From Methyloligellaceae bacterium (GTDB lineage: Bacteria; Pseudomonadota; Alphaproteobacteria; Rhizobiales; CBDCYM01), in assembly GCA_965224165.1 (NCBI GenBank), contig CBDCYM010000011.1, forward strand, positions 1,522,877-1,586,876: a stretch of DNA of 64,000 nt, read 5' to 3'. Positions 17,160 to 64,000 of the stretch are shown here, piece by piece; within the stretch, counting starts at the first letter, position 1; every line of letters begins with the position of its first letter. The position numbers were made by a program, and so were the translations under genes. The notes beneath the pieces are model-generated. The model was not told the origin of the DNA. It saw nothing but the letters and a program-made list of their open reading frames with translations, and made no database searches.

Positions 17160-17166
17160 GTGACTA

Positions 17167-17279
17167 TCTCTAAATACTCCCTTCGGACCATCCACCATCT
17201 ACCATCCCCCGCCACCCGCCATATTCTGCGATAATTAGGCGGGTGCAGGGGATGGTAGATGGTGGATGGTTTTTAGAGG
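17167..17279. repeat. Long palindromic repeat element, copy 1 (family with copies 2 and 3 at 29171-29257 and 59424-59536)
   Basis: Shares the core gccacccgcc-atattctgcgataattag-gcgggtg with the other two copies. Both arms carry the same extra 'atctacc' segment relative to the other copies. The left arm has a tactcccttcgg segment that the right arm lacks. Confidence 0.85.
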
Positions 17280-17627
17280 TATCGAGGTGCCTACCATCCG
17301 TTAATCGACCTTCGTATAAAGGATTTATAGTCGTCGAAAGTAATGCGTTGTATTTTTGCACCCATTCAAATCATATTTGTATGTTGGTGCTCCGCAAGAA
17401 CTTGTCGCCGTCTTAAAATAAAATTAAACCTCTTCATGTAATTTGATTCAAACTTTACTTGACGACTCCTGGGGGGGGAGACATGGAAAATATGACACCG
17501 GGCGAACATAGCGACTATCCTGAGCATCCACTTGACGGACCTATCCCAACGGATTGAGAACCGGATAGTTCAAAATCAGGCGCTGCTGGGAAGCAGTGAT
17601 TGCAAATTGCAATAATAAAAACGGCTG

Positions 17628-19172
17628 TCAGTTTGGCGGTCGTTTTTGCATTAATTTGGAGCGCAACTCCGTCTTTAGAACTTTGCCATAGTTATTTTTT
17701 GGCAATGTTGTTTCTTGAAGATAAGTTTTAGGTCGCTTGAACCGGGCGATGTTTTCCAGGCAAATCCTGTCGAGTGATGAAGGGTCCATATTCCGCCCTG
17801 GCTTCATCACCACAAAGGCGACTACATCCTCTCCCCAGTCAGGGTGAGGGCGTCCGACAACCGATACTTCCAGCACATCCGGGTGAAGTAGAAGAGTTTC
17901 TTCTACTTCTCTCGGATAGATGTTACTGCCTCCTGAAATGATAATGTCTTTCGACCGATCATGCAGAGTGAGGAAACCATCTTCATCGAGTGACCCCATA
18001 TCCCCGGTCCATAACCACCCCTCTCGCAAAGTGTCGGCTGTCGCTGCCGGTTGCCGCCAGTAGCCCGCCATAACAGATGGACCGCGAACCAGAACTTCAC
18101 CAATCTGTCCAGGTGATAATAATCCGCCGTCCGGATTGCCAATCTGAATTTCAACACAGGACTGAGCAATCCCAACGGATGAGAGACGCGCCTCCCAACG
18201 CGGGTGCTTCATGTCTGCATGAATGTTCCGGCTGAGTGCGGTGATTGTCATGGGCGATTCACCCTGACCATAAATCTGGACAAAGCGTTGCCCCATCACG
18301 TTCATAGCTTCTTTTATGTCAGCCAAGTACATTGGCCCACCGCCATAAACAATCGTCTTAATGCCGTCACCATAGGAGCCTTCGTTTAGAGCTTGATCAA
18401 CTAAACGGCGGACCATAGTGGGTGCGAGGAACATCGAAACATTTCTTAGTGAACGCGACAGATTAAGCAGAGTTTGAGGGTTAGAGGAGCTTTGCTCCGG
18501 CACCACGTGACGTGCGCCTTTCAGAACGAACATAAAGTTGTAAAGGCCGGCGCCATGAGACATTGGCGCGGCATAAAGTTTCGCACCATCCCTTTCAACG
18601 GTATCGACATCGGCGAAATAGCTATGGGTCATGGCGGCAAGGTTTGCGTGCGTAATCATTACGCCTTTCGGCCGCCCAGTTGTTCCGGAAGTATAAAATA
18701 GCCATGCCAAATCATTAGGACCTTTCGGACATACCTTGCTTAAAGGGTCTTCATTGTAAAGCGCGGTGAATTCAGAGCGGTCAGTAGAAATAACTTCTCT
18801 GAGTGTCTTACAGTCATCCAACTGGCCATAGAGAGCATCACCTCCATTATCGGATATGAAGGCAAGTGTGGCTTGAGCATCCTGCAAAATCCAAGCGGCT
18901 TCCTTGGGATGGAGTTTTGCATTAATGGGGACAACCGCAGCTCCGGCCCACCAAGCACCGTAAAGAACCTCTAAATATTCCGTACAGTTACTCATAAAAA
19001 GGGCGATGCGGTCTCCTTCGCGGATGCCGTAACTAGTGCGGAAGGTGGCTGCCATGGATGCGGCTCTCAGAGCAAAGTCATTATATGTTGCCTTTAACGT
19101 TTCGCCTGAGAGGAGCGCAGGCGAGTGGGGGGCTATTTTTGCCGTACGCGCCAACCATGTGCACACATTCAT
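17628..19172 (-). CDS. AMP-binding acyl-CoA synthetase / fatty-acid-CoA ligase. The likely start is the internal Met (MNVCTWLARTAK…), while the longest ORF extends to 19247.
   Basis: AMP-binding signature FYTSGTTGRPKGV, about 515 aa, ANL superfamily layout. Confidence 0.8.
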   Translation of the reverse strand: MNVCTWLARTAKIAPHSPALLSGETLKATYNDFALRAASMAATFRTSYGIREGDRIALFMSNCTEYLEVLYGAWWAGAAVVPINAKLHPKEAAWILQDAQATLAFISDNGGDALYGQLDDCKTLREVISTDRSEFTALYNEDPLSKVCPKGPNDLAWLFYTSGTTGRPKGVMITHANLAAMTHSYFADVDTVERDGAKLYAAPMSHGAGLYNFMFVLKGARHVVPEQSSSNPQTLLNLSRSLRNVSMFLAPTMVRRLVDQALNEGSYGDGIKTIVYGGGPMYLADIKEAMNVMGQRFVQIYGQGESPMTITALSRNIHADMKHPRWEARLSSVGIAQSCVEIQIGNPDGGLLSPGQIGEVLVRGPSVMAGYWRQPAATADTLREGWLWTGDMGSLDEDGFLTLHDRSKDIIISGGSNIYPREVEETLLLHPDVLEVSVVGRPHPDWGEDVVAFVVMKPGRNMDPSSLDRICLENIARFKRPKTYLQETTLPKNNYGKVLKTELRSKLMQKRPPN

Positions 19173-19820
19173 GAAACCAGTCCCAGACATCGGAAGAGTA
19201 GAGAGTAGAAACAAAGTTACGACAGAAGGTGTGCCTATGTCGAACATACTATTTATTGTCTTATACCAATGATCTTTGAGTTTGATTCATCGGTATTCCT
19301 AATGGCCAACGGCATATATGATTTTCTCGAGTTGCTGATTGCTGAATGGTTTGTGGGCGGAAATCCGCTTATAAACAAACCACAGGCCGGCCAAATCGGC
19401 ATGTTTATGTGCTGGGCGGGTTTTTCATTTATATGTAGAGAATTCTTATCAGTCGAGCTGTGCAGCGATTGAAAAGTAGCGAAGCTTGTTGCCTCTTAGA
19501 TCACAGACTTTCTGCCTAATGACGAAACATGATAGCTATTATCTCTGGAAAAAAGCTCGACCAGTTGATTACGGCCTTCAGCTCCATTTTGAATCACAAA
19601 ATTTCCCTCTTCGCCAGTAAGCAATTTTGCTGTCAGCAATAATATATCTCTCCCAGGAGGGGCGTGATGAACTTGCAGATCAGGTGAAGAAAGACCTATT
19701 AAGAGAGTGGTCCGGTATGGACCCATGAAATAATGGCGCGCCTCGAGGGAGAAACCTCGAACACAACCCAAGCTATCCCCAAGCACCCGACGTCTACCAA
19801 AATAAAGCACACGAAGTGTG

Positions 19821-29170: not shown

Positions 29171-29257
29171 AACCATCCACCACCCCCTGCCACCCGCCAT
29201 ATTCTGCGATAATTAGGCGGGTGGCAGGGGGTGGCCCGAAGGGAGTATTTAGAGATG
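29171..29257. repeat. Long palindromic repeat element, copy 2 (each arm differently truncated)
   Basis: The core ctgccacccgcc-atattctgcgataattag-gcgggtggcag is identical to copy 3. The right arm keeps cccgaagggagtatttagagatgccc. Confidence 0.85.
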
Positions 29258-29340
29258 CCCAGTTGATTTATACCAATCCAACCTACAAGCTTGCCGGAAA
29301 TAATTGACTATCGAGGTTATTTTGTACATTTGATCCTTAT

Positions 29341-29450
29341 TGAGAGTCACTAGATCAATCTGCGTTCAAGTGGATTCACTTGAATGCAGAAAAATTGATC
29401 GATATCAAAGAAGTAGAGCATGTTAAGCGAACTCACTTGAGCGCAACATG
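29341..29450. repeat. Two-hairpin intergenic repeat, copy B (hairpin 1 at 29350-29379, hairpin 2 at 29404-29445)
   Basis: Aligns with 947-1056. Stem differences are compensatory: ccacg/cgtgg against ctgcg/tgcag, and catcc/ggatg against catgtt/aacatg. Confidence 0.7.
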
Positions 29451-32588: not shown

Positions 32589-32939
32589 CGGTCTATCCTA
32601 AAAACTTTTTATTTCGAGTTGAGCCATCTGGCTCACCTACCAATCACAATCAAAAGTCTTGGAGGACTGGATGGCTACCGATTTCGACGAAAACGGAAGC
32701 AATCCAACTGCATGATATGAAGCAATCCAACTGCATGATATTATGTGACAAAAGGTAGCGGCAGGTACGCGTGCTGTGTGGCGAAATAATGGCCTTAAGC
32801 AAAAAAACTGTTGTATGGATTGATAATATCTATTTTTCTTCATCTAATATCTGATCAAAATAACTCCCACCTGTTAAATGAGCCCAAGAACTTGGGCGGC
32901 AAGGATTTTATATTGATCCCTTGAGTTGAGGTTATTGCA

Positions 32940-46480: not shown

Positions 46481-48043
46481 ATGTTGAGGGATAATGAAGA
46501 GCTAGAGATCAAGTTTGAGCTGACGGGTGATGAATTAGAGGAAATCCGTTCAAATCAGACACTCGAAGACCTCGCGGTCAAGAAACCTATCACAAAAACC
46601 CTACACTCAATCTATTTCGATACACCTGACCATTCACTGCGCTCCCAGAGCATCTCATTAAGGGTGCGCCAAGTTGGGAAGGAGTGGATTCAGACGATAA
46701 AATCGAAAATTGGTGTGACGGCGGGCGTATCTCATCCCGTAGAATTTGAAGTGAAGGTGGAGAATTCTGAGCCTGATCTTACATCTATCTCAGATACGAG
46801 CCTGCGTAAAAAAATTACAAAGCTCACGAGTAAGGACGCGCTTATTCCGGTATTTGAAACTGTCATCCGGCGCACGACACGGCTCCTGCGAGCGCCGGAT
46901 GGGAGCGAGATCGAAATTGCACTTGATAAGGGCGATATTCTTGCTGGAAAACGTTCAGCAGAAATTTATGAAGCTGAACTTGAGTTAAAATCAGGGACGG
47001 TCCGTTCCATACTCACCCTGGCGGAAGCTTTGATGGGCAGCAAAGCAATGAAGCTTTCAAAAATGAGTAAGGCTGAACGCGGTTATCGTCTCGTCGAAGA
47101 GAGTCAGGCATTTGCAGACCTAAAACCTCAAACGTCAAAAAAGCCGAACTTGAAATCCCGGCATACCGCTGAGGAAGCTTTAAAGCATATTTTACAATCT
47201 GTTGCAGGTCAGGTGACGCATAACCTGGGCGTTACACGTCATTCGGAAGTGCCGGAGGGAGCACACCAATTGCGCATTGGCCTTAGAAGATTGCGTGCCG
47301 CACTCCGAGCTTACCGTCCAATCACAGATTGCGAAATGGTGCGCTGGCTTGGCCGCGAAGCGCGTGATTTGGCACAGCTTGTCGGCGAACAACGGGATAT
47401 TGATGTTCTCATTTCAGATATCGTAATGCTGGCATCTAAGAATGCTCCCCCAGACCTTGGCGCGGAAAAAGTTTTGAAGAAATTAGAGCGTCACCGCCAA
47501 GGCATAAGGTCACATGTTTGTCGCGCATTGCGGGATAAGCGATGGACTATGTTTGAGCTGAAGCTTGGAATGTTTATCGAGATGGCGGGGTGGCGGCTAG
47601 ATAATAATTTGAAAGCGGAGAAAGTTTTGCGGGCACCTGCCCACAAATATGCCCGTACAGCCCTTAATAAGAGTTGGCGGCGTGCGGAAAAATTGGGGGG
47701 CCGGATTTCAGAACTCAGTATTAGTGAGCGCCATGATTTGCGGAAGGCTCTCAAAAACTTACGCTATCTCGTGGAGTTTTTTTCAAGCCTTTACCCTGCA
47801 AAGAAAGTACGCCCCTTCCTCAAACAACTTAAACAGGCGCAAAACGTGTTTGGCTATCTGAACGATGTAGCTATGGCAGAGCAATTGCTACACATTTTTC
47901 AGGATGCGGATGGTCAGCTAAAAGATGCCAGGCTAACCACAGGATATGTATTGGGGTGGCATATGGCTGAGGCAGAAAATGCTTGGAAAGACGCGGTATC
48001 CCGTTGGAAATCTCTTAGCAAAGCGGAACGTTTTTGGAAGTGA
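46481..48043 (+). CDS. CYTH (triphosphate tunnel metalloenzyme) plus CHAD domain protein
   Basis: N-terminal EIKFEL… CYTH signature (ExExK) and a helical C-terminal CHAD-like region, 520 aa. Confidence 0.65.
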   Translation: MLRDNEELEIKFELTGDELEEIRSNQTLEDLAVKKPITKTLHSIYFDTPDHSLRSQSISLRVRQVGKEWIQTIKSKIGVTAGVSHPVEFEVKVENSEPDLTSISDTSLRKKITKLTSKDALIPVFETVIRRTTRLLRAPDGSEIEIALDKGDILAGKRSAEIYEAELELKSGTVRSILTLAEALMGSKAMKLSKMSKAERGYRLVEESQAFADLKPQTSKKPNLKSRHTAEEALKHILQSVAGQVTHNLGVTRHSEVPEGAHQLRIGLRRLRAALRAYRPITDCEMVRWLGREARDLAQLVGEQRDIDVLISDIVMLASKNAPPDLGAEKVLKKLERHRQGIRSHVCRALRDKRWTMFELKLGMFIEMAGWRLDNNLKAEKVLRAPAHKYARTALNKSWRRAEKLGGRISELSISERHDLRKALKNLRYLVEFFSSLYPAKKVRPFLKQLKQAQNVFGYLNDVAMAEQLLHIFQDADGQLKDARLTTGYVLGWHMAEAENAWKDAVSRWKSLSKAERFWK

Positions 48044-48094: not shown

Positions 48095-49387
48095 TTAATT
48101 GAAGTTATTTTTTTGCGTCATTCGATTGTGCGAGGAATTCATGAGCCAGCGGATCAAAAAACGTCGCGTGCCAGAATAAAAAATCTCATGGCCACCTTGT
48201 TCCAGTCCAAAGGATAGTTTCTCCGGATCGTCCCTCCAAAACTTAGAGATTTCTTTCACGGCCGCTTCAGCACTGCCAGATCTTGGCTGGTCTTGTGCTC
48301 CAGCCTCAAGAAAGAATGGACGGGGTGCGATGAGCCAGGCAAAACGTTCATGATCAAATTCCGGTAAAAAGCCAAAATTATTCGCCCAAATTCCGTGAGG
48401 GAACTTCCAATATGCGTGTTTTGCATATTGGTGTTTTCTCCCTATCCATTTGTGTACGAAATTTTGGAAGAATTGGCTGACAACAACAACATCAATTGTT
48501 TTATCAATAGCTGAAAGGTAGAGGGCGACTTGGCCGCCTAGGCTGATCCCGTAAGTGCCGGTGTTTGCAGAAGGAATGTTGAGATGATTCCTTAGGGCAT
48601 TGAGAGCGCTCGAGATGGCACCGATCTCAAGCCCAATCAACCTTAGGCCGGAACTCATTATTCGGCGGTCCACCTTATCGCGGAACTCATTAGACTTAAA
48701 AACTTTGTGCCTTTTTAACTGCGTAATGATGTACGGAGCGAAAACTGTAAAACCATCCTGTACAAGTTTGCTTCCAAGTTCCTTATGGTAATCTTTAAGT
48801 TTATAATCTGAGGGTTTTTCAAGTCCGAAAAGAAACTCTGGACTCCCCGCTGTTCCATGCACAGCAACCACAAGCGGAGAGGTGGGTAAACTTTTCTTTT
48901 TATATCCGAGTAAACCAGCTAATCTGAATTGGCTCATGCAAACTTCAAATTCAAGATATTCGATTTTCACATCCTGGGTTTCATATATTTTTCTCTTTGA
49001 AATAATCCGTGCAGAATTATTATGCGCTCGTTGAACTGGTATTGATGGAATGCAAGAAGCTGGGACACCCATTCGTTTCATTAGGATTTGACGAGCATCT
49101 GTTTTCGAGCCACTAATTTTTTCCCTTTTCTCAACTTCAATCTTATTTGCTTCTTTATCCATATACTCGTGGATTGAGTCATAAAAAATGTTTGCCCCTA
49201 ATGTCATTGCAAACTCGGGCTTTTGTGGTTTTAATAGATTTCTATACTTAATTTTTTCAGTGGTGCGGCCGATGAAAAAACCGAGACAGGAACAAATGAT
49301 AAGACTCAACAATAGCCCGGCTATTTTTTTGTTACGCGGATTAATCACAATATTCTCCTGCTTTACAGGCCGGTACGATTTAATCAA
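48095..49387 (-). CDS. alpha/beta hydrolase (esterase/lipase-like) with an N-terminal membrane anchor, in an AT-rich gene
   Basis: GxSxG motif GISLGGQVAL, N-terminal TM (LLLSLIICSCLGFFIG), and low GC against its neighbours. Confidence 0.5.
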   Translation of the reverse strand: MIKSYRPVKQENIVINPRNKKIAGLLLSLIICSCLGFFIGRTTEKIKYRNLLKPQKPEFAMTLGANIFYDSIHEYMDKEANKIEVEKREKISGSKTDARQILMKRMGVPASCIPSIPVQRAHNNSARIISKRKIYETQDVKIEYLEFEVCMSQFRLAGLLGYKKKSLPTSPLVVAVHGTAGSPEFLFGLEKPSDYKLKDYHKELGSKLVQDGFTVFAPYIITQLKRHKVFKSNEFRDKVDRRIMSSGLRLIGLEIGAISSALNALRNHLNIPSANTGTYGISLGGQVALYLSAIDKTIDVVVVSQFFQNFVHKWIGRKHQYAKHAYWKFPHGIWANNFGFLPEFDHERFAWLIAPRPFFLEAGAQDQPRSGSAEAAVKEISKFWRDDPEKLSFGLEQGGHEIFYSGTRRFLIRWLMNSSHNRMTQKNNFN

Positions 49388-52091: not shown

Positions 52092-52751
52092 ATGCCCGCT
52101 AATATACGTGTGCAATCGCTGCAAATAAGAGGGTACGATCCTCTATCCTTTGTCCTTGATGGTGGGACATGTCTTGCTGTGCAGGGACCATCTGGAACAG
52201 GTAAGTCCCTGCTGCTACGCGCTATCGCTGATCTTGACCCAGCCCATGGAAAGATCTTTTTGAATGGCCGAGAGCGATCAGAGGTGACTGGTCCGGAATG
52301 GAGGCGGTGTGTTCGTTACGCTGCGGCGGAGCCGGGCTGGTGGGCGGAGACGGTGCGGGCGCATTTTTCAGAAAATAATAAATCTGTGTTTTCGGAAAAT
52401 AATAAATCTGTGGGTGCTGAGACGGAAAATCTAGATGTTGAAAACATGACTACTGCACTTGGACTTTCCGTTGATTTACTTGATCGGCCGGTTAGCGAAC
52501 TCTCGACCGGAGAGCGTCAGAGATTTGCATTGATCAGAGCCGTTGCGGACTCGCCGCAGGTTTTACTACTTGATGAACCAACGGGTGCGTTGGACAGCAA
52601 GGCGGCGGCCTATGCTGAGACATTGATCAAGAAACAGCTTGAAAGAGGGTGCGCCATTATGCTTGTGACGCATGATCCAGACCAAGCTTTGCGGCTCGCT
52701 AACCGGCGACTTCATCTTGAAAACGGCATCGCGCGCCTGGAGGACATATGA
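52092..52751 (+). CDS. ABC transporter ATP-binding protein (FetA/YbbL-like putative iron exporter) carrying an in-frame 8-aa tandem duplication
   Basis: Walker A GPSGTGKS, ABC signature LSTGERQRF, Walker B LLLDEP. Partnered with a UPF0014-type permease downstream. Confidence 0.75.
   Translation: MPANIRVQSLQIRGYDPLSFVLDGGTCLAVQGPSGTGKSLLLRAIADLDPAHGKIFLNGRERSEVTGPEWRRCVRYAAAEPGWWAETVRAHFSENNKSVFSENNKSVGAETENLDVENMTTALGLSVDLLDRPVSELSTGERQRFALIRAVADSPQVLLLDEPTGALDSKAAAYAETLIKKQLERGCAIMLVTHDPDQALRLANRRLHLENGIARLEDI
52365..52412. repeat. 24-bp tandem duplication (ttttc[a/g]gaaaataataaatctgtg, two copies) inside the ABC ATPase gene, encoding FSENNKSV twice
   Basis: Read directly from the sequence. 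The duplicated segment is AT-rich and out of character with the codon usage of the rest of the gene. Confidence 0.85.
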
Positions 52752-55101: not shown

Positions 55102-58100
55102 ATGGCATCAAAAATAAGTAATCTTGGTTTTGTACATTTGCGGGTGCATTCCGCCTATTCGTTGCTTGAAGGGGCGCTACCAATTGCGAAACTGGTGGAG
55201 TTGGCGAAAGCTGACAAGATGCCAGCATTGGCGCTTACGGATACGAACAATCTTTTTGGTGCTTTAGAATTTTCAGAAGCGCTGGCAAAGTCCGGCATCC
55301 AACCCATCATTGGTTGTACTCTTGCAATTGATTTGTGCGAAGGGGAGACGAATGACCCCATTTACGACGCTGCACGCATGGGGGACGGGCCCAAGGCGGG
55401 TATCAATGGTTTAATCGCACTTCTGGCAAAAGATAAAGCAGGCTATGAGAACCTTATGTGGCTTGCGAGCCAGGCCTTTCTGGTACACAGCGATCAGGGT
55501 CAAACCCACATTAAATTGGACGAATTGAAGGACCGTAATGAAGGGCTTATTCTTTTATCAGGTGGGCCAAGCGGACCTATTAATCGTGCGCTTATTGAAG
55601 ATGGTGAGACACTTGCCCGCACACGTCTTGGCGAGTTAAAGGCAGCTTTTAGCGATCGTTTTTATGTGGAATTGCAACGCCATGGCAGAACTGAAGAGCG
55701 GGACATTGAACGCCAGCTTATCGAAATTGCCTATGATATGAAATTGCCCTTGGTTGCAACCAATGAACCTTATTTCCCCACACGTGATGATTATGAAGCC
55801 CATGATGCTTTGATTTGTATAGCGGAAGGCAGCTATGTTTCTGAGGATGATCGCCGCCGCTTAACACCGGAACATCATTTCAAGAGCCGGGAAGAAATGA
55901 TGGCGCTGTTTTCAGATCTCTCGGAAGCTTTGGAAAATACGATTGAGATTGCTAAGCGTTGCGCTTACCGACCGTTGACGCGCGGACCAATTCTGCCGCA
56001 ATCAGTGAAGGTCGCTAAAGGACAAAAGGCAGAAGAGATCGAGAAGGCGGAAGCAAAGGAGCTTAAGCGTCAAGCCACCTCCGGGCTTAAAGAGCGACTT
56101 GCCGCTCATGGCTGCGCCCCGGGTTACAACAAAAAAGATTACGAAACTCGCTTAGCTTACGAACTCGATGTTATTACCGGTATGAAATTTCCAGGGTACT
56201 TTCTTATCGTTTCTGATTTTATCAAATGGACAAAAGCACAGGGCATTCCCGTTGGACCGGGGCGCGGTTCGGGTGCCGGGTCCGTGGTTGCATGGTCTTT
56301 AACGATTACCGATCTTGATCCAATGCGTTTTGGGCTGCTTTTTGAGCGCTTCTTAAATCCTGAACGCGTTTCCATGCCTGATTTCGACATTGATTTCTGC
56401 CAAGACCGTAGAGACGAAGTCATTCGTTATGTTCAGAAAAAATACGGTACGGACCGTGTGGCGCAGATTATTACTTTTGGAAAATTGCAGGCGCGGGCCG
56501 TTTTGCGTGATGTAGGGCGGGTGCTTTCCATGCCCTATGGACAGGTTGATAAGCTTTGTAAAATGGTTCCCAATAATCCGGCTAATCCGGTTACTTTAGC
56601 GGAGGCCATAAATGGTGAACCAAAACTGCAAGAAGCTCGCGACAGCGAGCCCATCGTCGCCCGGTTGCTTGATATTGGTCAGAGACTTGAAGGGCTTTAC
56701 CGGCACGCGTCAACCCATGCGGCAGGCGTGGTTATTAGCGATCGCCCATTAACAGAGCTTGTCCCTCTTTATCGTGATCCCCGCTCAGACCTGGCTGCAA
56801 CGCAGTTCAATATGAAATGGGTAGAACCTGCCGGGCTCGTAAAATTTGACTTTCTTGGTCTTAAAACCCTCACAGTTATTGAAAAAGCCGTGCAACTCAT
56901 TGCTGGGCAGGGTGTTGAGATTGATATGGCTGCCTTGCCACTCGATGATAGTAAAACTTATGAACTTATGGCGCGGGGTGACACGATAGGCGTCTTTCAA
57001 TTGGAAGGATCGGGGATGCGCGAGAGCTTACGCAAACTCAAACCCGATCGCTTTGAAGACATTATCGCTATGGTTGCGCTTTATCGGCCTGGCCCGATGG
57101 ATAACATTGAAACCTACATAAACAGAAAATATGGACTGGAGGAGCCCGACTATCTGCATGCCCTTATTGAGCCAATTCTAAAAGAGACTTATGGGGTTAT
57201 TATTTATCAAGAGCAGGTCATGCAGGTAGCCCAGCAGCTTTCGGGCTATTCACTTGGTGAAGCGGATCTTTTGCGCCGGGCTATGGGCAAAAAGATCAAG
57301 GCTGAAATGGATAAGCAGAAAACGCGTTTTATTGAAGGGGCTATCGAGAACGATGTAGAGAAAGCGCAGGCAGAGTACATTTTTGAACTGGTAGCAAAAT
57401 TTGCAGGCTATGGTTTCAATAAGTCACATGCGGCAGCTTATGCACTATTGGCCTACCAAACGGCCTATCTCAAGGCGAATTATCCGGTTGAGTTTATGGC
57501 TGCGATTATGACCCTTGACCAGGGCAATACAGATAAGATCAATTTATTCTATCAAGAGGGGCAAAAACTTGGCATTGAGATGAAGCCGCCATGTGTGAAC
57601 GCCTCAAGGCAAGAGTTTCTGCCTGAAGATGGCGGCATTCGCTATTCTCTTGCAGCGCTAAAAAATATCGGCCAACAGGCCGTTGAGCATATTTGTGAGG
57701 AACGTGAAAAAACAGGAGGCTTTGCCAGCCTTAGTGAATTCGCCCAGCGAATTAATCCGCGTATGCTCAATAAACGCGCATTAGAGACTTTGGCCGCGGC
57801 AGGTGCATTCGATGTGCTCGAACCGGATCGGGCGGCAGTTTACGGTAACATTGATAAATTGCTAGGTGAGGCCAACAGATCATCGGAGGATCGCGCCCAC
57901 GGTCAAAGTGATCTTTTTGGAAATGGCGGTAAGCCTCCACCAATGGAACTTCGCCGAACAGAACCCTGGCTGCCCATGGAAAAACTGACGCGGGAATTTG
58001 ACGCTGTCGGGTTTTTCCTCTCCGGGCATCCATTGGATGAGTATGAAGCGGCGTTGACGCGTCTTGGTGTGGAGCACTGGGTGGACTTCGAAAATGAAGT

Positions 58101-58593
58101 GCGCTCAGGACGCACAGCCGGTGTTTTAGCAGGGACCGTGACCTATCGCCAGGAACGCAAATCAAAGTCCGGTAACCGGTTCGCTTTTGCCGGTTTTTCA
58201 GATCAAACAGGACAATTCGAAGCGGTCATTTTTTCAGATACCTTAGCTGTATCACGTGAGCTTCTTGAGCCAGGTACACCGGTATTTCTGCGCGTCGAGG
58301 CCGAGCTCGATGGTGATAATGTAAAGACCCGTGTGCAAAGTATCGACTCTCTCGACCATGCAGCCCAAGGAGTCCAAAAGGGGCTTTGTCTACGTGTTGA
58401 CAGTTCAGCCAGGCTTCAAGAGATCGCCGGTAAGATCGAAGAAAAGGGCGCTGGCGAAATTCGCTTACTCGCGACCCTGGATGATCTGGACCGAGAGGTC
58501 GAATTTACTTTACCCGGTCGTTTTAACGTATCGCCTCGCCAAGCAAGCCTATTTCGGACACTTTCTGGTGTTATATCTGTATACGAAATCTAG
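55102..58593 (+). CDS. dnaE: DNA polymerase III subunit alpha
   Basis: 1163 aa with PHP domain at the N-terminus, polymerase core motifs and an OB-fold. Confidence 0.95.
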   Translation: MASKISNLGFVHLRVHSAYSLLEGALPIAKLVELAKADKMPALALTDTNNLFGALEFSEALAKSGIQPIIGCTLAIDLCEGETNDPIYDAARMGDGPKAGINGLIALLAKDKAGYENLMWLASQAFLVHSDQGQTHIKLDELKDRNEGLILLSGGPSGPINRALIEDGETLARTRLGELKAAFSDRFYVELQRHGRTEERDIERQLIEIAYDMKLPLVATNEPYFPTRDDYEAHDALICIAEGSYVSEDDRRRLTPEHHFKSREEMMALFSDLSEALENTIEIAKRCAYRPLTRGPILPQSVKVAKGQKAEEIEKAEAKELKRQATSGLKERLAAHGCAPGYNKKDYETRLAYELDVITGMKFPGYFLIVSDFIKWTKAQGIPVGPGRGSGAGSVVAWSLTITDLDPMRFGLLFERFLNPERVSMPDFDIDFCQDRRDEVIRYVQKKYGTDRVAQIITFGKLQARAVLRDVGRVLSMPYGQVDKLCKMVPNNPANPVTLAEAINGEPKLQEARDSEPIVARLLDIGQRLEGLYRHASTHAAGVVISDRPLTELVPLYRDPRSDLAATQFNMKWVEPAGLVKFDFLGLKTLTVIEKAVQLIAGQGVEIDMAALPLDDSKTYELMARGDTIGVFQLEGSGMRESLRKLKPDRFEDIIAMVALYRPGPMDNIETYINRKYGLEEPDYLHALIEPILKETYGVIIYQEQVMQVAQQLSGYSLGEADLLRRAMGKKIKAEMDKQKTRFIEGAIENDVEKAQAEYIFELVAKFAGYGFNKSHAAAYALLAYQTAYLKANYPVEFMAAIMTLDQGNTDKINLFYQEGQKLGIEMKPPCVNASRQEFLPEDGGIRYSLAALKNIGQQAVEHICEEREKTGGFASLSEFAQRINPRMLNKRALETLAAAGAFDVLEPDRAAVYGNIDKLLGEANRSSEDRAHGQSDLFGNGGKPPPMELRRTEPWLPMEKLTREFDAVGFFLSGHPLDEYEAALTRLGVEHWVDFENEVRSGRTAGVLAGTVTYRQERKSKSGNRFAFAGFSDQTGQFEAVIFSDTLAVSRELLEPGTPVFLRVEAELDGDNVKTRVQSIDSLDHAAQGVQKGLCLRVDSSARLQEIAGKIEEKGAGEIRLLATLDDLDREVEFTLPGRFNVSPRQASLFRTLSGVISVYEI

Positions 58594-58744
58594 CGGTTAT
58601 TACCCTAATTACATGTGGAAGATTTTGCTCATACTATTGCTTCCAAGTAGGCTTTAGATGTGAGATAAACTTATATCGTTTGGTGGGGTCTAGAGTTTAT
58701 GGCTTCTTATGAAGCCATAACAGTAATTCTAAGTATAAATCAAA

Positions 58745-59272
58745 ATGAGTTCAATTGTATTTATCGGAATTTTGGTTTTACTTCTAGCTGCAGCGGATTT
58801 TTCTGGCTGGTTTTCCAGAATTGAAATCTTTTTGAACCGGCTTAGCTTGAAATCACAAGCTTTTTTCAAATGGACTAAGAGTTTTATATCTCTCATTTGG
58901 ACGAATGAATTCGGCGATTGGGTCTTCAAAATTTGGATATACGGTTTCATTTTATCAGCAATTATTATGATGGGAGTTGTCATAGTAAAAGGTCCAGTTG
59001 GAATATCATTAAATGATGACAACTCATCTTTTGTAATAAATTTGCTTATATACTTCTATTATGCATTCGGAATTTTCTTGCTGGTCAATATATACTTCGT
59101 TATTGCTGTGTATCTTTTAATCTATCCTGCGACAGTTATTCTTTCTTGGCTTGTAAAAGCGTTCCATTTTATGAGTAAAGCCCCTAGAGGAATTGTTAGC
59201 AGAGCAGCCTTAGTTTTGGCTTTGGCCGTCTTTTTAGGTCGGTTTGTTTTTAGTCAGCTAATATTTATTTGA
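58745..59272 (+). CDS. hypothetical integral membrane protein, 175 aa, AT-rich
   Basis: Four or five hydrophobic helices. GC is clearly lower than dnaE. It is followed by palindromic repeat copy 3. Confidence 0.4.
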   Translation: MSSIVFIGILVLLLAAADFSGWFSRIEIFLNRLSLKSQAFFKWTKSFISLIWTNEFGDWVFKIWIYGFILSAIIMMGVVIVKGPVGISLNDDNSSFVINLLIYFYYAFGIFLLVNIYFVIAVYLLIYPATVILSWLVKAFHFMSKAPRGIVSRAALVLALAVFLGRFVFSQLIFI

Positions 59273-59423
59273 TAGTGTGTTAAGATTGCCACGTCAGGTG
59301 TTGCAAGTGCAGAAACCTTGCTAACAGTATTGAAATCTACCACAAAAATTACTCTCTAAAACCAATTTGCCATTGATAATCAATAAGTTAGTGCTATTTG
59401 GCAATTAACAATACGATTGGATA

Positions 59424-59536
59424 CCTCTAAATACTCCCTTCGGGCCATCCACCATCCCCTGCCACCCGCCATATTCTGCGATAATTAGGCGGGTGGCAGG
59501 GGATGGTGGATGGCCCGAAGGGAGTATTTAGAGATG
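59424..59536. repeat. Long palindromic repeat element, copy 3. This is the most complete copy, with perfect 47-bp inverted arms around an 18-nt centre (atattctgcgataattag).
   Basis: The left arm tctctaaatactcccttcgggccatccaccatcccctgccacccgcc equals the reverse complement of the right arm. Confidence 0.9.
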
Positions 59537-59587
59537 CCCGATTAGACAACCCTTTACACCAAACAAGCGTTTGTTTAACATCGCTTT

Positions 59588-60265
59588 ATGACACAGCAAG
59601 CCACGGCTCGAAAAAGCATCAAGCAAAAGAATACGCAAAGGAAGCCAAATAAGAGGCCCAAACTCGGTGATGGCGCGCAAACACGCGCCTCCAACCGGCA
59701 TGCCCAACTTTTAGATGTGGCTGCGGAGCTTTTTGCGACAACCGGATTCCGAGGTACAACAATGCGGGACATTGCAGCCCGAACGAAAATGCTACCGGGC
59801 TCGATCTATTATCATTTTCCGTCAAAAGACCAGCTCCTCGTTGCCGTTTATGAGGAGGGGGTTAAGCGTCTTATGGCCCGCATTGATGAAGCCGATCCAG
59901 GGGTATCGAGCGAGCCGTGGTTACGTTTAGAGGCGATCCTTACGGCTCATCTCCAGTCTATCCTGGACGACTCTCCCTATGCACGGGTTCTTATTCGGGT
60001 CCTTCCCGATGTAACGCCAACGGTGTCTGAGCGTTTGATAGAGCTACGCGATTCTTACGAGCAAGTTATTGCTGATATTATTGCCGAATTGCCATTGGCT
60101 CCGGGATTTGACCAGCGGCTGCTTCGCCTTTTTCTTATTGGTGCTGCAAATCATGTCCACATTTGGCGACGTGAGGGACAACATTCACCTGAAAAGATTG
60201 CTGTTGAATTGGTTCGCATGTTCCGCCTGCCCGTTGGCGCGGAGGAGGGGAGATTTGAACAATGA
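59588..60265 (+). CDS. TetR/AcrR family transcriptional regulator
   Basis: N-terminal HTH LLDVAAELFATTGFRGTTMRDIAARTKMLPGSIYYHFPSKDQLL, 225 aa. Confidence 0.8.
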   Translation: MTQQATARKSIKQKNTQRKPNKRPKLGDGAQTRASNRHAQLLDVAAELFATTGFRGTTMRDIAARTKMLPGSIYYHFPSKDQLLVAVYEEGVKRLMARIDEADPGVSSEPWLRLEAILTAHLQSILDDSPYARVLIRVLPDVTPTVSERLIELRDSYEQVIADIIAELPLAPGFDQRLLRLFLIGAANHVHIWRREGQHSPEKIAVELVRMFRLPVGAEEGRFEQ

Positions 60266-60681
60266 TGGATTATCCTGAGCGGGTGCTTATCACCAAGATC
60301 GGCCTTGATGGTCACGACCGTGGCTCCCGCATCGTTGCCGCTTACCTGCGCGATGCGGGCATGGAGGTGATTTACACACCGCCCTGGCAAGCCATTGATG
60401 CCGTTGTTGCTCTCGCAATGCAAGAAGACGTGGATGTAATCGGTGTGAGTTCACTTGCCACCGACCACCTGATTGTCCCGGATCTTATGGCAGCCCTGAA
60501 AGCTGCTAAGCTTGAGCATATAGGTGTGATCGTTGGGGGTATTGTGCCGGACACGGAGCATGCCATGCTTGAACAAGCCGGCGTGCACAAAATTTTTGAG
60601 CCCGGTGTTGCCCGGAGAGAGATTGTCGAGGCTGTCCGTATGTTAGCTAAAGACGCCCGCCGCGCACGGGAATTTGCGTGA
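60262..60681 (+). CDS. cobalamin-binding (B12) small subunit of a split acyl-CoA mutase (methylmalonyl-CoA mutase family)
   Basis: B12-binding motif DGHDRG (DxHxxG) in a Rossmann-like domain, 139 aa. Its start overlaps the TetR stop and its stop overlaps the large-subunit start. Confidence 0.8.
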
Positions 60682-62372
60682 GGAGAGACCCAATGAATGA
60701 GATGCCACACCAACTTAAAGACGCGGAATTTAAGGATAGGCGGGAGCAATGGCAAAGCGACTACGATCGCCAGATTGGATCAGATAAGCAGGTGAAAAAC
60801 CGGTCAGGTTTTGAGATTAATCCGCTTTACACATCTGCTGACTGGTCGGACGCACGTTATTCCGAAGACCTGGGGTTTCCAGGTCAGGAACCTTTTACCC
60901 GCGGAATTTATCCAACCATGCACCGCGGGCGAACTTGGACACAACGCCAGCTCATCGGGCTGGGAACGCCGCAAGATTATAATGAGCGAGTTAAAAAGCT
61001 TCTCGATCTTGGCACGACGGCAATCAGTCTTATTCCCTGTAACTCAGGCTTTCGCGGTGTGGACTGCGATGAGGTTCCGACGGCGTTGCTTGGTACTTGT
61101 GGGACGGTCGTCAACACATTGGATCATATGGATCAAGCCCTAAGCGACGTGCCTATCGATCGGATCTCGACGGCCATGAATGACCCGTCTCCTTTTACCT
61201 TATTTGCGTTTCTTTTGGGCGTGGCTAAGCGGCGCGGTATTTCTTGGAACAAAGTGACAGGCACCGCCAATCAATCCGACTATATTTCGCATTTCGTCGC
61301 CAATCACATGTTTTTCCGCTTGTCATTACCGGGAGCTAGGCGCGTGTTTCTTGATCACGTTGCGTTTTGCCGGGAGCATGTGCCGGGTTGGAATCCGGTT
61401 TCAGTTGTTGGGCAGCACATGCAACAAGCGGGTGCCACACCGGCCGAGGCCATGGGCTTTGCGCTCTCAACGGCAATTCAATATGCGGGTGATTGCATAG
61501 ATCGTGGCATGGATCCCGATATGGTTTTGTCGCGTTTTACATTTTTCTTCGATATTTCGATTTCATTTTTTGAGGAGATAGCCAAGTTCCGCGCGGGGCG
61601 ACGCATTTGGGCACGCATTGCGCGGGAAAGACTTGGTGCAAAAGATCCGAAATGCTGGAGGTTCAAATTCCATGCCCAAACGTCCGGTGTGGATCTGACG
61701 CGGCAGCAACCGCTGAATAACATCGCACGCGTTACCACACAAGCCATTGCGGGGATCTTAGGCGGGCTGCAATCCCTGCACACCGACAGCTATGATGAAG
61801 TCATTGCCGTGCCAACCGAAGAGCCAGCAAAAATTGCCGTCGCAACGCAAAATATTTTGCGCGAAGAAGCCCATCTCTGCGATGTCATCGATCCCCTTGG
61901 CGGTTCCTATTATGTGGAAGCCCTGACTAATCAAATGGAAGAAAAAATTCTTGAGGTCATAGAGATAGTCGACAAAGCCGGTGGGATGTACCAGGCGGTG
62001 GAGGGTGGTTTGGTTCAGCGCATGTGCGGCGCATCAGCCCTGGCTTATCAGGAAAAGGTCGACCGCGGTGAAGAAAAAATTGTCGGTGTCAATTGTTATA
62101 CCGATACGGAGGATGAAACAGAGCCGCCGCCTTATCGACCTGACCGGCCAGCGATGGAGGCCCATGTTGCCGCCTTCAAAGCCTATAAAGCTGAGCGAGA
62201 CAACCACGCTGTAACAACAGCTATCGATGCGCTTTCCAAGGGAGCTAAGAGCGAGACGGAAAATATTTTCGCCCGTATTGTGGAGGCGGCTGAAGCAGGG
62301 GTCACACATGGCGAAATCATCTCCCGGTTGCGAGAGGATCTCGGAGACGGCCAGCCTTTGATTGTTGCTTAA
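60678..62372 (+). CDS. acyl-CoA mutase large (substrate-binding TIM-barrel) subunit, methylmalonyl-CoA mutase family
   Basis: 564 aa with the methylmalonyl-CoA mutase N-terminal-domain pattern (…[19 protein letters not shown]…). It lacks a fused B12 domain. Confidence 0.85.
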
Positions 62373-62699
62373 CCTGTGTGTGGACGGTGGAGTTGTAGGC
62401 AAGCGATGTTTCTCCGAAGTTACTACAGACCCTGGTCATCCCCACGAAGGTGGTGATCCAAATGTGAAGTTACTTTAAGAAAGAGTGTATGTTTGAGCCA
62501 AAAGGATCGTTGAAATTTGTTTGCTTAGGATGGGTATATTCAAACGAAAGAATAGAGAAGCTTGGACAGGCCGATTTAGATTCCCGCCTTCGCGCATTGG
62601 TGTCCGGGGAATTTTTAGGTGAAGGTGAAAAGTGGTTGATATAAAAAGACATAACGCTATCTTGGAGTATCGGGACTTGGTTCTGACGGTGCCACTTGC

Positions 62700-62880
62700 G
62701 CTCCTTCCCCCTCGAGGGGGGAAGGCCAAACGCCACTGGCTTAGCCCCTCAGGGCTAAGGCGCATGGTGTTTGGGATGGGGGTGACGGTGACGGAGGCAG
62801 ATTCAAGTGTATAGGTTTTCTCATGAATCCCCCCCACCCGGCACTCCGTGCCGACCTCCCCCTCCAGGGGGGAGGTTATT
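62700..62880. repeat. Cluster of four GC-rich perfect or near-perfect palindromes (cttccccctcgaggggggaag; cttagcccctcagggctaag; cggcactccgtgccg; cctccccctccaggggggagg) in the gap between the mutase and meaB
   Basis: Read directly from the sequence. The run-of-C then run-of-G stems resemble REP/MITE-type hairpins. Confidence 0.5.
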
Positions 62881-63084
62881 GGAGTATGCTGTCAAACCTC
62901 ACGACACGACAAGTGGAGATGCATTTCCAAATTTTCCCGGACAGCAGTGCGCCTTCGCGGGAATGACGAAGTTTGTGGCAAATCTGCTGATAAATTTCAT
63001 TCTGTTCTCATCTATAGCTAAGCTCAATCCTAACAAAGCAGATATAGTTTCTTATCCATATAAATCGGGTTTTCTTAGGTGGAG

Positions 63085-64000
63085 ATGGAACAAACCAAAT
63101 TAACGCCCATCGTGCGTTTGGCAGAAGCTGTTCTTGACGGTGATATTGGAGCTCTTGCCCGTGCGATTACACTTGTTGAAAACCACCAGCCAGGTTCGGA
63201 CGAGCTGTTAAGTATGCTTCGTCCTAAAGCTGAGGGGGGTGCCATCATCGGCATTACCGGTCCACCAGGTGCGGGGAAATCAACGCTTGTTGATGCTTTG
63301 ATCAAAGAGGTCCGCCAGACCGGTCGGAAAGTGATGGTGCTGGCTGTTGATCCCTCAAGTCCCATCACCGGTGGGGCGTTACTAGGCGATCGCACCAGGA
63401 TGGGGTCACACAGTGTTGATAGCGGTGTTTTTATTCGCTCTCTCTCCTCACGCGGCTATCTTGGCGGATTGTCAGAGGCTACTTTCGATGTCATTGATCT
63501 GGTGAATTCCGCCGGTTGGGATATGACGATTATCGAAACGGTGGGCGCTGGGCAATCAGAAACCGATCTCGCGGCCGTGGCGGATATTAAACTCTTGGTT
63601 TTGCCACCAGGCCTTGGAGATGAGGTTCAGGCGATCAAAGCCGGCATTCTTGAAATTGCGGATATCTTGGTGGTCAATAAAGCCGATAGAGAAGGTGCCG
63701 ATCAGTTGGTGCGTCAGCTTCAGGGCATGCTGGATCTGAGACCCGAAGATGAGCAGAGGGTTGAGATATTAAAAACTATTGCGACGGAAGGCGAAGGTGT
63801 TGCCGAACTTCTGATGGCGATTGAAGGATGTGTGTCGTCATCTGAGGAAGGTGACTTACGCAAACGCCAGATCGCCCGTACACGTGCCGCCCTGGCAGGA
63901 TTAACAGCGGATCTGGTCCGCCGCAGGATAGATGATGAAACAGATCCTGCGTTAGAAGGCGTGTTGACGGATATTGTTGATGGCCGTGTCACGCTTCGTG
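63085..64000 (+). CDS. meaB: methylmalonyl-CoA-mutase-associated GTPase MeaB/ArgK (G-protein chaperone), 3'-partial at the window end
   Basis: Walker A GITGPPGAGKST after an RBS aggtggag; MeaB-like N-terminal region. The frame is open to nt 64000. Confidence 0.85.
   Translation, partial: MEQTKLTPIVRLAEAVLDGDIGALARAITLVENHQPGSDELLSMLRPKAEGGAIIGITGPPGAGKSTLVDALIKEVRQTGRKVMVLAVDPSSPITGGALLGDRTRMGSHSVDSGVFIRSLSSRGYLGGLSEATFDVIDLVNSAGWDMTIIETVGAGQSETDLAAVADIKLLVLPPGLGDEVQAIKAGILEIADILVVNKADREGADQLVRQLQGMLDLRPEDEQRVEILKTIATEGEGVAELLMAIEGCVSSSEEGDLRKRQIARTRAALAGLTADLVRRRIDDETDPALEGVLTDIVDGRVTLR

Follow-up and report, generated by a model that had tools for sequence, protein, structure and literature searches.

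A probable pivalyl-CoA mutase operon with a conserved candidate TetR operator and a structured spacer before meaB in a Methyloligellaceae bacterium

Which acyl-coenzyme A (acyl-CoA) ester is rearranged by the split, B12-dependent mutase whose genes lie at the end of a 64,000-nucleotide (nt) stretch of a Methyloligellaceae genome (contig CBDCYM010000011.1, positions 1,522,877 to 1,586,876; hereafter the window)? The list of open reading frames (ORFs) and the sequence itself give four genes on the same strand at the window end, for a TetR-family regulator, a small B12-binding subunit, a large mutase subunit and the chaperone MeaB. A first-pass annotation of the letters alone had proposed this gene set, including a B12 subunit of 139 amino acids (aa), and Pfam and TIGRFAM models find each member where it had been put; it left the substrate unassigned. 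From sequence comparison we consider it very probable that this is a tetR-pcmB-pcmA-meaB operon encoding an adenosylcobalamin (AdoCbl)-dependent mutase for pivalyl-CoA and isovaleryl-CoA, that is a pivalyl-CoA mutase (PCM).

The large subunit, PcmA, carries most of the argument. Over 559 of 559 residues and with zero gaps it is 71% identical (81% positives) to UniProt A7IQE5 (ABS70241, Xaut_5043) of Xanthobacter autotrophicus Py2, whose curated name is ‘Pivalyl-CoA mutase large subunit; PCM large subunit’ and which, going by that UniProt name, we take to be the enzyme characterised in vitro in the 2015 study of PCM. The Py2 enzyme is said to have been found by bioinformatics, in work of that year attributed to Kitanishi, Cracan and Banerjee (J Biol Chem), and reportedly interconverts isovaleryl-CoA and pivalyl-CoA without having isobutyryl-CoA mutase activity. 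The likeness extends to the genes on either side. In Py2 Xaut_5045 encodes a TetR protein, 5044 the B12-binding subunit, 5043 the large subunit and 5042 a MeaB-type ATPase, so that the TetR-small-large-MeaB order and the split architecture with the small-subunit gene first are common to both, as are a 559-aa large subunit and a related palindrome ahead of the TetR gene; the small subunit is 70% identical to its Py2 orthologue, MeaB 50%, and TetR 42% over 183 aa. Among the best 120 non-self matches to the large subunit in a large protein collection, all 70-77% identical to it, two are named ‘pivalyl-CoA mutase large subunit’, A7IQE5 being one. Members of the PCM clade are 71-72% identical to the query, HcmA of 2-hydroxyisobutyryl-CoA mutase (HCM) is 38% identical, and the methylmalonyl-CoA mutases (MCM) of human and P. 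shermanii 34% and 32%, respectively.

The residues that govern substrate choice point in the same direction. They were compared in a multiple alignment of the query with Py2 PCM, HcmA and the human and P. shermanii MCMs, and in pairwise PDB alignments; the roles given here to the MCM and HCM residues are those we presume them to have, with the numbering cross-checked through PDB 5REQ, the Y89F mutant, in which the RQYAGF of MCM reads RQFAGF. The numbering of HcmA Ile90 and Asp117 is self-consistent in the PDB alignment with an 11-residue tag offset. MCM Tyr89 corresponds to Ile90 of HcmA and to Leu in both the query (RQLIGL) and Py2 PCM; MCM Arg207 (FMVRN) to Gln208 of HcmA and to Asn in the query (FVANH) and Py2 PCM; and MCM Tyr243-His244 (GYH, as also in HcmA) to GQH in both. 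At the position of HcmA Asp117 (STDFD; SVAFD in MCM) the query has Ile (SLIPC) and Py2 PCM Leu (SLLPC), and this is the only one of the specificity positions at which the two differ. The motifs RQL-IGL, SL(I/L)PC, ANH and GQH are thus common to the query and Py2 PCM, unlike MCM and HCM, and Leu (120/120), Gln-His (118/120) and (I/L)PC (117/120) are nearly fixed among the best 120 homologues. With Leu, Asn and Gln in place of MCM Tyr89, Arg207 and Tyr243 there is no carboxylate-binding Arg, and with SLIPC in place of STDFD the Asp that would contact a substrate hydroxyl, which is the role we assume for Asp117 of HcmA (4R3U), is missing. At the residues by which MCM, HCM and isobutyryl-CoA mutase (ICM) are defined, the enzyme is none of the three. 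The first-pass annotation had favoured something other than canonical MCM and named MCM-type residues in a propionate-utilisation context as what would overturn that view; the residues differ, and neither a methylmalonyl-CoA epimerase nor a propionyl-CoA carboxylase, nor any other propionate context, is found among the window genes. Full-length similarity, the active-site signature, and split subunits with an adjacent MeaB-type GTPase occur together, and by every sequence criterion testable here the enzyme is a PCM. Pivalyl-CoA mutase had been among the candidates listed, and with 71% identity to the Py2 enzyme, shared signature residues and a shared gene order, orthology allows the substrate to be assigned.

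Reasoning from the enzyme family, the 139-aa subunit would bind cobalamin in the base-off/His-on mode through the histidine of its DxHxxG motif (DGHDRG in the translation, which also has the SxL and GG motifs), and the 559-aa TIM-barrel subunit would bind the acyl-CoA. Homolysis of the Co-C bond would then lead to a radical 1,2-shift of the CoA-carbonyl group, by which pivalyl-CoA (2,2-dimethylpropionyl-CoA) and isovaleryl-CoA (3-methylbutyryl-CoA) would be interconverted. An active site with neither Arg/Tyr for a carboxylate nor Asp for a hydroxyl, and with Leu, Asn, Gln and Ile/Pro/Cys at the positions concerned, would suit a bulky apolar tert-butyl substrate, and MeaB would load and guard the cofactor using GTP. 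Physiologically, carboxylic acids with quaternary carbons, once activated by a CoA ligase, would enter leucine/isovalerate catabolism, and the host would on this assignment be able to break such acids down. A specific function of this kind would replace the vague labels ‘acyl-CoA mutase family protein’ and ‘methylmalonyl-CoA mutase N-terminal domain’, and PCM has some interest for biotechnology, in the production or degradation of C5 branched acids; the known picture of B12 mutases is unchanged by it, the conserved candidate operator and odd spacer described below being small additions.

The surroundings of related genes are in keeping with such a pathway. A set of 80 loci, one genome per species, from Alpha-, Beta- and Gammaproteobacteria, Actinomycetota and others, has the TetR-small-large-MeaB order in most of its members, and TetR lies directly upstream of the small subunit in most related loci. 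In Py2 the genes after meaB are for a PaaD-like thioesterase, two CoA ligases and a branched-chain-type ABC transporter, and a thioesterase of this kind, a CoA ligase and such a transporter also occur in Roseovarius and Sulfitobacter. Across the relatives the variable neighbours include AMP-forming CoA ligases (three clusters), ABC-transporter components, acyl-CoA dehydrogenases, thiolases, enoyl-CoA hydratases and short-chain dehydrogenases/reductases, which fits a route of four steps, in which a carboxylic acid is taken up and activated to its CoA ester, its carbon skeleton is rearranged, and the product is broken down in a beta-oxidation-like or leucine-type manner. The 60 kb upstream of the operon in the window are of housekeeping type, with dnaE, the pyruvate dehydrogenase E1/E2/E3 genes, lipA, an aminotransferase, fetAB, uvrD, a gyrB/parE-type gene, a sigma factor and others. 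An AMP-ligase gene among them (17628-19247) was considered as the source of a cognate CoA ligase and set aside, its product being ~30% identical to the PCM-adjacent ligases of relatives, with one exception at 53% (locus L062).

How far the assignment to a clade fixes the physiological substrate is a separate matter. The enzyme could truly belong to the PCM clade and yet act in the cell on another branched or quaternary-carbon acyl-CoA, pivalyl-CoA being its in vitro proxy; 2,2-dimethylbutyryl-CoA or a natural neo-fatty-acyl-CoA might be that substrate, and a biosynthetic direction is also conceivable. In its favour, pivalate is mostly anthropogenic, whereas the clade is found abundantly among Proteobacteria and Actinomycetota of the sea and the soil, and the neighbouring genes vary, several distinct families of CoA ligase being among them along with thiolases and acyl-CoA dehydrogenases. 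The active-site signature, however, is near-invariant within the clade and is that of the named PCM itself, and none of the data here point to any specific other acyl-CoA, so that we hold this alternative to be unlikely.

Much less probable is a split (archaeal-type) MCM or an ICM. Generic database names (‘methylmalonyl-CoA mutase N-terminal domain’) and matches to the Pfam and TIGRFAM subfamily-domain models speak in its favour, and MCM with its chaperone (P. shermanii MutB, 1REQ, or human MMUT, 2XIJ, with MeaB/MMAA) does share the PF01642 fold family, a cofactor-binding motif and a G-protein chaperone with the system described here. Yet the NF006944 equivalog model gives 404 bits against a cutoff of 876, MCM Tyr89, Arg207 and Tyr243 are replaced, identity to MCM is 32-34%, and MCM has its large and B12-binding domains on one fused chain. 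What we take to be the ICM pair, Phe and Gln in place of MCM Tyr89 and Arg207, is missing too, Leu and Asn standing there. A side activity of IcmF (4XC6), which is of the same superfamily, is the interconversion of pivalyl-CoA and isovaleryl-CoA (PMC10481361; PMC9974510). IcmF is, however, one fused polypeptide of ~1100 aa with a built-in G-protein domain, where the query is unfused; its alignment with the query covers no more than the C-terminal half of the barrel (134.7 bits), and the IcmF equivalog model gives 181 bits against a cutoff of 1500. An HCM (HCM/RCM type) is the most improbable of all, for though HcmA 4R3U is the top PDB match (390 bits, E 1e-115; human, M. tuberculosis and P. 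shermanii MCM 258-297 bits), and, being the closest solved structure, comes from a B12 acyl-CoA mutase that is likewise split and has a MeaB-like chaperone, its 38% identity compares with 71% to PCM, and Leu, Ile and Asn occupy the places of its Ile90, Asp117 and Gln208. Ethylmalonyl-CoA mutase (ECM), which the first-pass annotation had grouped with the split, small-subunit-first enzymes, is a single fused polypeptide of large and B12 domains that belongs to the ethylmalonyl-CoA pathway with crotonyl-CoA carboxylase/reductase and should not have been in that list; here the genes are split and no ccr or related gene is among the annotated window ORFs, the alignment having included no ECM reference.

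Several points nevertheless weigh against a mutase for pivalyl-CoA under TetR control, and are to be kept in mind. The function is carried over from one orthologue characterised in vitro, and for this widespread clade pivalyl-CoA is only a putative natural substrate in the environment. Next to the operon neither a CoA ligase gene nor a transporter gene can be seen, as the window ends inside meaB. Both the ligand of TetR and its DNA site are read from conservation, and with 712 nt between them meaB might no longer be coupled to the mutase genes.

The features of the operon are collected in Table 1. MeaB exceeds its equivalog cutoff despite being incomplete, and has the P-loop GPPGAGKST and an NKAD motif; its start, ATG 63085, is served by a ribosome-binding site of its own, GGTGGAG. 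The translationally coupled overlaps that had been proposed survive in part. The TetR stop and the small-subunit start do overlap, as ATGA (60262-65). For the large subunit a GTG at 60678 overlaps the small-subunit stop and would give the 564 aa first suggested, but its start is most likely ATG 60693, which is preferred because GAGGAGAG lies just upstream, the resulting 559-aa product is a 100% match to a database protein (P0001), and it aligns with residue 1 of the Xanthobacter enzyme. The small/large junction is then probably an 11-nt spacer and not an overlap, in which it differs from Py2. Further differences from Py2 are that the TetR protein here has ~28 extra basic N-terminal residues, that Py2 has 10 nt before meaB in place of the structured spacer of 712 nt, and that the genes are found here in chromosomal-looking housekeeping surroundings near dnaE and there on the conjugative plasmid pXAUT01.

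Table 1. Features of the probable PCM operon; positions are those of the window
Feature	Position	Strand	Length	Evidence or remark
Promoter-like TTTACA, 17-nt spacer, TAACAT	59553-59581	+		Consensus scan, pattern match only; ends 6 nt before the TetR ATG
Candidate TetR operator, palindrome AAACAAnCGnTTGTTT	59561-59576		16 bp	Between the -35 and -10 hexamers
TetR-family regulator	59588-60265	+	225 aa	Pfam TetR_N 65 bits, TetR_C_24 54 bits
Predicted PCM small (B12-binding) subunit	60262-60681	+	139 aa	PF02310 78.7 bits; TIGR00640 120.6 bits (cutoff 57.45 bits)
Predicted PCM large (substrate-binding) subunit	60693-62372	+	559 aa	PF01642 548.6 bits; TIGR00641 461 bits (cutoff 303.8 bits)
Hairpin-rich spacer between pcmA and meaB, read as non-coding	62373-63084	+	712 nt	
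meaB, G-protein chaperone	63085-64000, 3′ end beyond window	+	305 aa visible	TIGR00750 295 bits (equivalog cutoff 240.75 bits)

What would TetR bind? In the promoter-like sequence ahead of its gene is a palindrome, AAACAAGCGTTTGTTT (59561-59576), symmetric at 7/8 positions, and a zero-mismatch copy occurs nowhere else in the 64-kb window; a scan of the window found no second such site before meaB. When the region upstream of TetR was compared by blastn with the related loci, 25 of 25 nt were identical in a Thermohalobaculum metagenome-assembled genome (MAG; locus L002), in a stretch spanning TTTACA and the palindrome, and a 20-nt match was found in Mameliella. Both matches are just ahead of TetR genes and have the palindrome as their common core. 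With at most 3 mismatches in 16 the palindrome is present in the TetR upstream regions of 45 of 62 loci, those with a divergently transcribed TetR gene included, and it is kept in alpha-, beta- and gammaproteobacterial loci; in Py2 it reads TAAACGATCGTTTA, 15 nt before the TetR start. As a control, all 1.34 Mb of the related loci were scanned for AAACAA-N4-TTGTTT, no more than 1 mismatch being allowed among the 12 bases of the half-sites. This gave 47 sites, 38 of which are 300-1400 nt upstream of a large-subunit gene, and position counts across the sites yield a perfect palindrome as consensus, AAACAAAC/GTTTGTTT.

The protein has a TetR_N helix-turn-helix and a ligand domain, and a palindrome is conserved at its own promoter, as would be expected of a TetR repressor; the palindrome is likely its operator. 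Its position inside the promoter spacer suggests repression by promoter occlusion, and a promoter that ends so close to the ATG may give a leaderless transcript. TetR bound at this site would repress the operon until a ligand released it. The nearest solved TetR proteins, at modest scores, are the regulator ‘I2’, DarR, and the fatty-acid/steroid acyl-CoA-sensing FadR and KstR2, and our guess is that the ligand here is an acyl-CoA or a free acid, probably the substrate acid or its CoA ester. Ligand-controlled expression had been suggested for this locus from the gene overlap, and conserved synteny together with the conserved promoter palindrome now argues for it; the candidate operator could even serve as a pivalate- or acyl-CoA-responsive genetic switch.

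A longer palindrome just upstream (59416-59542; arms of 60 nt, 90% complementary, of which the inner 35 nt pair perfectly) was also considered as the operator and rejected, as it is a dispersed intergenic repeat. This repeat, ~115-125 nt long, has further copies at 17165-17283 and 29173-29260, the three being 84-97% identical, and since all three are intergenic it looks like a repetitive extragenic palindromic (REP) or miniature inverted-repeat transposable (MITE) element; an exact search of JGI metagenome contigs for its 33-nt centre found nothing. A second dispersed repeat, of 72 nt, is present at 935-1006 and 29350-29421 (82% identical), with an internal inverted repeat GTTCAAGT...ACTTGAAC, and one of its copies is ~90 nt from the palindromic repeat at 29173-29260. 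A cobalamin riboswitch or other known RNA was sought with Rfam in two intergenic regions, and the only matches were spurious ones to miRNA precursors, below the gathering cutoff, on the long hairpin (59427-59531).

The first-pass annotation had also drawn attention to a hairpin-rich gap of about 700 bp ahead of meaB, and at 712 bp this has held up well. The spacer RNA is predicted to fold more stably than shuffled versions of itself (z = -4.8; 0/20 shuffles fold as well), and it has perfect GC-rich hairpins such as TCCCCCTCGAGGGGGGA at 62706 and TCCCCCTCCAGGGGGGA at 62857 and two near-identical C5/G6 hairpins found nowhere else in the window. It is the largest when set against 69 relatives, in 66 of which the pcmA-meaB spacing is within -28 to +43 nt, with a median of -1 nt; three Burkholderiales MAG loci (L063, L067 and L048) have spacers of ~440-450 nt. 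A gene or pseudogene in the gap was considered and discarded, as four ORFs there have no Pfam match and there is no tblastx similarity to 81 loci. Nor does the spacer have an Rfam match, a blastn match in plasmids, or a terminator-like site on the + strand in our scan; blastn against the loci gave a single match, of 45 nt and 80% identity (L061). From these comparisons we take the spacer to be structured, non-coding DNA that was inserted specifically in this lineage, and not a feature of the family.

A more far-reaching reading would see tetR, the palindrome, pcmBA and meaB as a widespread regulon of which the inducer and substrate in soil and marine bacteria would be natural quaternary-carbon (‘neo’) acids and not man-made pivalate, and in which the spacer would here be a functional RNA that uncouples meaB dosage from the mutase, for instance as a processing or stability element or as a separate control point. 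We rate this joint proposal as speculative and doubtful. To our knowledge no description of a tetR/palindrome/pcmBA/meaB regulon has been published.

The host seems to be from a sparsely sampled, Hyphomicrobiales-like lineage, since its DnaE (55102-58593) has no relative above 70% identity, besides itself, in a collection of 5.8 billion proteins; the best named matches are from Methyloligellaceae, Methyloceanibacter and Rhodomicrobium. PcmA is better conserved than DnaE in this host, with 77% identity to its nearest relative. Between dnaE and the operon is a low-GC island (58600-59400; 35-38% GC versus ~50% elsewhere), with an orphan hydrophobic ORF of 175 aa (58745-59272) that has no Pfam or NCBIfam match. 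Elsewhere in the window there are two short tandem duplications, one exact (2 x 23 nt; 32696-32741) and the other 96% identical (2 x 24 nt; 52365-52412) and within an ABC ATPase ORF (52092-52751), and the gene for a CYTH-CHAD protein of 520 aa (46481-48043) adjoins an opposite-strand ORF of 430 aa (48095-49387) without a Pfam or NCBIfam match.

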